A stretch of DNA of 64,000 bases from Eledone cirrhosa (Eukaryota). Under the pieces are notes generated by a model. That model was given only the letters and a program-made list of their open reading frames with translations. It was not told the origin of the DNA and ran no database searches. The position numbers and the translations under genes were made by a program. Of the stretch, positions 26,580 to 26,653 are shown piece after piece. The stretch's first letter is position 1; each line of letters starts with the position of its first letter. The stretch is taken from positions 85,902-149,901 of the forward strand of contig CAXHJY010000050.1 of assembly GCA_964016885.1 (NCBI GenBank), written 5' to 3'.

Positions 26580-26653
26580 CAGATTGACTTTGTTAGTTTC
26601 AGAAGATCCCGTTAAGGGTGAAAGCAGCGATTCTTTGCTTAAACTTTAATCTG
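26580..26653 (+). ncRNA. Complete CAGAAGA-core hammerhead-like fold
   Basis: CAGATTGA CTTTGTT AGTTT CAGAAGA TCCC GTTAA GGGT GAAA GCAG CGATTC TTTGC TT AAACT TTAATCTG. Confidence 0.65.

Follow-up and report, generated by a model that had tools for sequence, protein, structure and literature searches.

The motif at positions 26580-26653 (+) of the window, by which we mean the whole 64-kb stretch of DNA analysed, lies within a 5′-truncated 3′ end of a retroelement (26507..26668, +). This copy belongs to a family that we call family A, is inserted in (TA)n and, compared over 162 bp, matches the 3′ pLTR that terminates the full-length copy L048 at 98.8 % identity. An inverted fragment of the optional 3′ tail (26458..26503, −; 95.7-97.8 % identical to the L048 tail) abuts it. 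Stem I of the motif is bipartite. Its distal part has 8 bp with one G-U pair (26580-26587 with 26646-26653) and could be extended to 9 bp, its proximal part has 5 bp (26595-26599 with 26641-26645), and a one-sided U-rich bulge of 7 nt (26588-26594) separates the two on the 5′ side, the 3′ strand running through 26641-26653. Between subfamilies the letters of the 5′ strand vary in the bulge and not in the stem. The core C3-A4-G5-A6-A7-G8-A9 occupies 26600-26606, with A4 at 26601, and is followed by stem II (26607-26619), which consists of a U10.1-U11.1 mismatch, three CCC/GGG pairs and the loop GUUAA. The sequence G12-A13-A14 (26620-26622) opens a block that extends over stem III (AGCAG/UUGCU, 5 bp with one G-U pair and a 7-nt loop) and ends with the CUU triplet (26620-26640). 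Cleavage is predicted after CUU, between 26640 and 26641. All parts named in the original prediction (stem III, bipartite stem I, bulge, GUUAA loop and CUU) are present.

The layout is that of a type I hammerhead, with three possible stems around the core (5+8, 3 and 5 bp) and stem I open, and C3-G8, G5, A6, A9, G12-A13-A14, A15.1-U16.1 and H17 are all in place. The canonical CUGANGA core with the U4 of the U-turn is not there, as position 4 is A, and because of this replacement we would keep the motif, judged by its sequence, out of the canonical hammerhead class. The original prediction named CAGAAGA as the departure from the usual core and missed a second one: the textbook G10.1-C11.1 closing pair is absent and U10.1-U11.1 stands in its place. 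In the subfamily consensuses loop II starts with G and ends with A, and together with the U-rich bulge it fits the published R-Nn-A loop 2 motif (PMC2632901).

The window contains the heptamer CAGAAGA 20 times, while 5.7 occurrences would be expected. Six copies of the motif had been predicted, starting at 2034, 2914 (−), 2975, 14256 (−), 14361 and 26580, and all six are there and read CAGAAGA. Besides the one described above, they lie in a copy truncated within stem I (2034..2108, +), in a copy with the complete motif and 3′ tail (2974..3153, +) and its inverted truncated partner (2898..2976, −), and in an inverted copy with tail and a poly-U bulge (14151..14338, −) and its forward partner (14351..14450, +), both of a middle-aged subfamily. 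The fold was also said to be complete, which is true at 26580 and fails in three other copies: in those at 2034 and 2914, with 12 and 5 differences, respectively, to the copy at 26580, the distal 5′ strand is missing, and in the one at 14256 a stem II pair is broken. The triplet of the copy at 2034 is UUU and not CUU. The copies at 2914/2975 and 14256/14361 form inverted pairs of the type made by one insertion, so the six copies are not independent and go back to about four insertions, all of a single master sequence. By themselves they are unable to demonstrate selection. They are 5′-truncated ends of one young Penelope-like retrotransposon (PLE) of the Hydra clade.

The full-length copy L048 consists of an inverted truncated copy (2293-2849), a pLTR (2848-3308), an ORF (3349-5475) and a second pLTR (6106-6566). 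Both pLTRs are 98.5 % alike, the first holds the motif and a tail of ~90 nt, and a 3′ UTR follows the ORF. The ORF codes for 708 aa with a reverse transcriptase (RT; YRDD) together with a GIY-YIG domain (IVY...YIG) at the C-terminus. As in the copy L176, the motif is found in both pLTRs, in one case close to the 3′ terminus of the element, in the other ~160 nt before the start codon at which the 708-aa RT/GIY-YIG frame begins. At several loci, a GIY-YIG frame was seen ~1 kb upstream of the motif. The single RT + GIY-YIG ORF, the pLTR, the inverted truncated copy and the optional tail are features of EN+ Penelope-like elements. A Pfam search of the element protein gave no match at E<=0.1, and at least 120 protein homologues had 39-57 % identity to it. 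The assignment to the Hydra clade was made by its defining motifs (RWK-like, DKT, CxCX5C linker, CxxC and CxH) and (TA)n targets; the protein contains RWR at 37-39, SDKT at 114, CNCRNRADC at 566, CDLC at 661 and CKH at 689, and the insertions are flanked by (TA)n. The motif is thus the pLTR hammerhead reported for this clade, and its position in the pLTR and the homology within the clade, neither of which had entered into the original prediction, are the reasons why we, in agreement with that prediction, call it a hammerhead. The family is young, with young copies 1.7 % off their consensus (n=72). Copy 3′ ends form two clusters beyond the predicted cut, one at 29 nt with 82 of 232 segments and the other at 117 nt with 58. 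GT-AG introns are present in the 3′ UTR, with donors at L048:5556 and 5588 and a common acceptor at ~6306; they are demonstrated by the spliced retrocopies L149, L152, L014 and L162, and by eye in L001. We noticed also a non-autonomous derivative with tandem rearranged units (L180 and L190-L198), the second motif of which lacks C3 and stem I.

The two nearest PLE families found in the genome, B and C, carry hammerheads at the place matching that of family A. Family C (51-53 % aa identity; L173-L175 and L179) has the known U3-A8 core, a long stem III of 6 bp whose loop is the palindrome GAGCTC, and a GUC site. Family B (44-49 % aa identity) has a CUGAAGA core and a stem II insertion of ~110 nt (hammerhead at L081:304). 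A 5′-truncated copy of family B, a second and very young Hydra-like PLE also seen at L081 and L082, lies in the window at 7643-9541 (+). All 150 scored matches of this family are 100 % identical over 139 aa, its frames are 830 aa long and its tandem unit measures ~6 kb. Several other repeats were recorded on the way. The window contains an inverted pair of small hammerheads at 17401 (−) and 17458 (+) with U3-A8 cores (UUGACAA and UUGAGAA) and GUC sites, canonical-core hammerheads of other repeat families at 16103 (−) and 20087 (+), and a decayed copy of a further PLE family with RT and GIY-YIG fragments at 28600-30340 (+). A near-perfect 100-bp palindrome at 24944-25043, probably a fold-back repeat, attracts spurious Rfam miRNA matches. 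Non-LTR elements, labelled by eye, are represented by a tandem pair including an RT frame of 1216 aa (57687-63661, −), an RTE-like frame (53301-56907, +) and an L1/Tx1-like fragment (38455-40168, +). The tandem array at L045 is retrozyme-like, every unit of ~490 bp containing a CUGAUGA hammerhead. Of 166 Rfam matches (E<=1), the 150 listed include no hammerhead, not even for the canonical-core motifs of the window. The suggestion that standard searches miss the motif therefore holds for Rfam, but the miss is not specific to A4.

To see whether A4 is a property of the family, as had been proposed, or a product of decay, we turned to the whole genome. A 34-mer with position 4 left free had 15,854 exact matches, of which 15,697 read A and 157 another letter. 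These non-A copies, counted with the flanks GTTT and AGCG required, were T in 39, G in 37 and C in 24 cases (hand count among 100 listed of the 157), a split expected of background mutation. A looser A4 pattern matched 26,001 times in the 3.0-Gb genome, i.e. in ~26,000 copies, with 0 matches for reversed controls. The older subfamilies, which are 75-82 % identical to the young element, give the same picture. Using a core-side anchor, A4 was present in 94 of 100 copies listed (hand count), and an anchor ending before the core yielded, among 100 listed of 111, 93 copies with A, 3 with C and none with U, 4 being broken (hand count). All subfamilies examined carry A4, and the proposal that it is a family trait is upheld.

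We also searched genome-wide for a CUGAAGA consensus that would reduce the A4 copies to a dead sub-lineage, and none emerged. The U4 pattern (CUGAAGA) had 1,026 matches. Thirty of them were fetched, and 28 turned out to be perfect fold-back junctions centred on position 4 (27 recognised by script, 1 by eye), the remaining two being truncated copies without the distal strand. Nine further candidates for old U4 relics comprised six fold-backs, one truncated U4 copy, one G4 copy and one unrelated or badly decayed sequence. One decayed U4 copy with a full stem was found at L119. Because the near-palindrome TTC-A-GAA is centred on position 4, an inverted junction there shows CAG on one strand but CTG on the opposite strand, and in this way the fold-backs fake CTG. 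A live CUGAAGA sister lineage was thus rejected, as the CUGAAGA matches are mostly such junctions. Perfect fold-back junctions centred on core position 4 number ~1,000 (examples at L083-L112), and this junction hot spot mimics canonical cores in pattern searches. In 555 kb of fetched loci scanned with a descriptor, no other repeated family had A4, and the other repeated hammerhead families seen in the genome are all U4.

Three further candidate explanations were considered and dropped. A minus-strand hammerhead (GAAAC...GUC) was rejected by eye, as a CUGANGA partner is not conserved from one subfamily to another. That A4 arose because of a U-rich 'anti-hammerhead' helix upstream does not fit the middle subfamily, in which the facing letter is C. 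Rebuilding of CUG by splicing found no 3′ UTR donor with a fitting exon end. As a separate observation, contigs of two further organisms (7 and 46 records, low depth) match the motif closely but possibly do not come from independent species; one contig from the first of them spans position 4 without a difference, among the matches listed, and we leave it out of the evidence.

Next, we compared consensuses of young and old copies. None of the 45 stem and core positions changed, while 3-5 of 13 loop and N7 positions (Fisher p 0.0003-0.009), 32-34 of 100 positions of the upstream flank (p ~1e-6) and 10 of its nearest 40 positions (p 0.0003) did, in a comparison that follows one lineage path, takes its position classes from the model and scores flank gaps as differences. 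The young consensus was made from 20 copies and the old ones from 16, 14 and, pooled, 30 decayed copies, which were picked by a pattern that stops before the scored stretch. For the 10 unpaired core positions alone the result is 0 of 10, with p ~0.02-0.06 at a flank rate of 0.25-0.33. N7 is the only core position that varies (U7 in 25 of 100 old copies listed, hand count), and its drift, the G...A loop II and the pyrimidine-rich bulge form a hammerhead-like pattern. The stems are invariant between subfamilies, so there are no compensatory changes and no covariation. As stems and core did not change while loops and flanks did, the fold and core were maintained after A4 arose. This points to selection on the fold and does not imply the chemistry.

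In hammerheads the U-turn is formed by U4, which also touches the phosphate that lies between A6 and N7; an A cannot do this in the same way. Ambros and Flores reportedly observed in 1998 that, in a viroid hammerhead, U4C was active and U4A and U4G were inactive. In a full pairwise mutagenesis of a type III construct, single and double mutants of the CUGA region were all of low activity and could not be rescued, with the exception of the C3-G8 swap (PMC9901934). We expect the intrinsic activity to be low. Natural core variants can nevertheless retain low activity, and U4C sustains a viroid in vivo (PMC3088659). Using RNAfold, the hammerhead reached -13.5 kcal/mol as compared to -15.6 kcal/mol for the minimum-energy fold, a gap of 2.1, and its weight was ~0.001, with A4-U11.1 pairing at p 0.39 in the competing fold. 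Four U4 hammerhead copies from the same genome also stayed below 0.04, so this test of the fold is weak. None of the 232 aligned segments, a sample biased to core-bearing copies, started or ended at the cut site, and junctions at the cut site are not in excess (by eye, ~30 of 100 listed of 667, versus ~60 of 100 listed of 919 at C3). The lack of copy ends agrees with the anole PLE, which likewise has no cut-site ends, and the hammerhead of which cut only with protein, its insertion not needing the cutting (PMC11167929).

Weighing this evidence, we give roughly even credence to the motif being an attenuated type I hammerhead of the Hydra-clade pLTR, probably dependent on assistance from the protein of the element itself, which would cut slowly after CUU despite A4. 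Tandem copies would be transcribed from a pLTR and stems I-III would fold in the transcript. The U-rich bulge may then dock on the G...A loop II, and G12 and G8 would carry out the cut at 26640/26641. A4 would weaken the U-turn and add a competing A4-U11.1 pairing. As a result, most of the RNA would escape cutting and be available as template, and slow cleavage would be tolerated or favoured. A further and more tentative proposal, which we regard as possible and short of probable, is that of a natural hammerhead that cuts without the U-turn uridine in a lineage of ~26,000 copies, rescued by the loop-bulge contact or by the protein of the element, and in which A may be imposed by a second role of the catalytic core as a splice acceptor, keeping mRNA and template RNA apart.

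The same conservation would be seen if U4A had ended cleavage and the three-way junction had been retained as an element for RT/endonuclease binding or positioning upstream of the two copy-end sites, and we consider this rather unlikely, yet deserving serious attention. The 0 of 45 changes speak for selection on the fold and not on chemistry, U-turn mutants are weak (PMC9901934), and in the anole PLE insertion in vitro is unaffected by cleavage mutants, uncut RNA being the main substrate (PMC11167929). Moreover, the 3′ ends of copies at +29/+117 nt are reminiscent of the PLE tail, which is delimited by two start sites of the RT, and Naiad elements spread without canonical hammerheads (PMC8557442). 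What such a binding role need not preserve is the set G8, G12, G5, A6, A13, A14 and non-G17, all of which are kept while only N7 drifts, an objection to which we attach modest weight. Loss of the ribozyme could also have been a neutral event, by one mutation in a master copy that was then amplified, with the motif looking intact because the family is young. Copy number alone is indeed uninformative about selection, since young copies are only 1.7 % from the consensus, and a single site would stay unchanged by chance over such divergence about three times in four. However, A4 was already present in the subfamilies of 75-82 % identity, and no stem or core position has changed since, in contrast to the loops and flanks. 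On these comparisons the neutral relic seems largely refuted, and we hold it to be very improbable.

The remaining alternative concerns a dual coding of the core, in which C3-A4-G5 (26600-26602) would be a 3′ splice acceptor with A4 in the invariant AG; splicing would destroy the ribozyme in the mRNA, and unspliced RNA would keep it. Upstream of the core, UUGAY resembles a branch point and is followed by a run of pyrimidines, which forms the bulge and remains rich in pyrimidines in the old subfamilies, and by UUUCAG. A distance of only ~15 nt, however, separates UUGAY from the AG, and a U-rich stretch is general before PLE hammerheads in the supplement consensus of PMC4209133. The element has real introns and the intron of Drosophila virilis Penelope ends at the start of helix I (PMC4209133), but in family A the two GT donors just past the stop codon are joined to the acceptor ~104 nt upstream of the core. 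In the 51 copies in which donor 1 does not stand before G, it led to the upstream acceptor in 7, to another AG in 1 and to the core in 0. Donor exon ends were seen in 0 of the first 100 of 919 copies without C3. A recurrent junction at the core AG (11 of 100) belongs to the rearranged non-autonomous derivative, with no donor found. The zero core junctions are not decisive, as RNA spliced at the core might not be copied. We estimate the acceptor to be improbable, if somewhat less so than the neutral relic; it can be combined with the slowly cutting ribozyme, as the two readings are mutually compatible.

Whichever reading is right, the A4 family offers a direct test of the need for self-cutting in Penelope-like elements, and the U4 and U3-A8 sister families in the same genome provide matched controls. 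If it cleaves, the CUGA rule in hammerhead search descriptors gains a high-copy natural exception, and a search for CAGA cores everywhere would be justified. Should it not cleave, a lineage of Penelope-like elements was amplified through several subfamilies with a hammerhead of conserved fold that does not cut, which bears on the open question of the role of hammerheads for these elements.

We found no report of a natural U4A core in the literature searched, which did not extend to subscription journals, figures, bioRxiv supplements and Repbase/Dfam, so that an earlier mention is possible. The natural variants named in the texts consulted include U3-A8, U4C and U10.1-U11.1 (PMC3088659) as well as A6C, with U4A not among them, and the variants of Perreault et al. 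(2011; PMC3088659) are rare single cases, unlike a state fixed in ~26,000 copies. The anole Poseidon element PAc resembles family A in having a pLTR hammerhead by the start codon and two preferred 3′ ends that define the tail. It belongs to another clade, however, and its C3 and G8 were tested and its cleavage demonstrated (PMC11167929). Minimal PLE hammerheads share the pLTR site and thousands of solo, tandem and inverted copies. They include U3-A8 core variants and show low activity in vitro, and U4A is not described for them in the available text (PMC4209133). They are almost without helix III and thought to be dimeric, whereas family A can close helix III as a monomer.

The closest relatives are the hammerheads of Hydra-clade PLEs (PMC8557442), which are also of type I, on the sense strand, near the 3′ end and associated with (TA)n targets; they share the protein motifs of the clade, and triplets ending in U are common among them. 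Stem III differs, having 5 bp and a 7-nt loop in family A versus mostly 3-4 bp and tiny loops in the listed Hydra hammerheads. The hammerhead sequence of Hydra-1_Obim differs as well, and a 12-nt word of the family A motif is absent from the available supplement. All 26 published Hydra-clade rows have CUGA, in contrast to CAGA in family A, and 14 of 26 rows in File S2 close stem II with U10.1-U11.1 (hand count). As the Hydra rows read CUGA in 26 of 26 and U-U in 14 of 26 cases, U10.1-U11.1 was inherited, which leaves U4A as the one true departure. The family A motif descends from the PLE hammerheads of the pLTR, whose way of working it probably shares. These hammerheads and U10.1-U11.1 were already known; what appears to be new is a U4A core fixed in ~26,000 copies.
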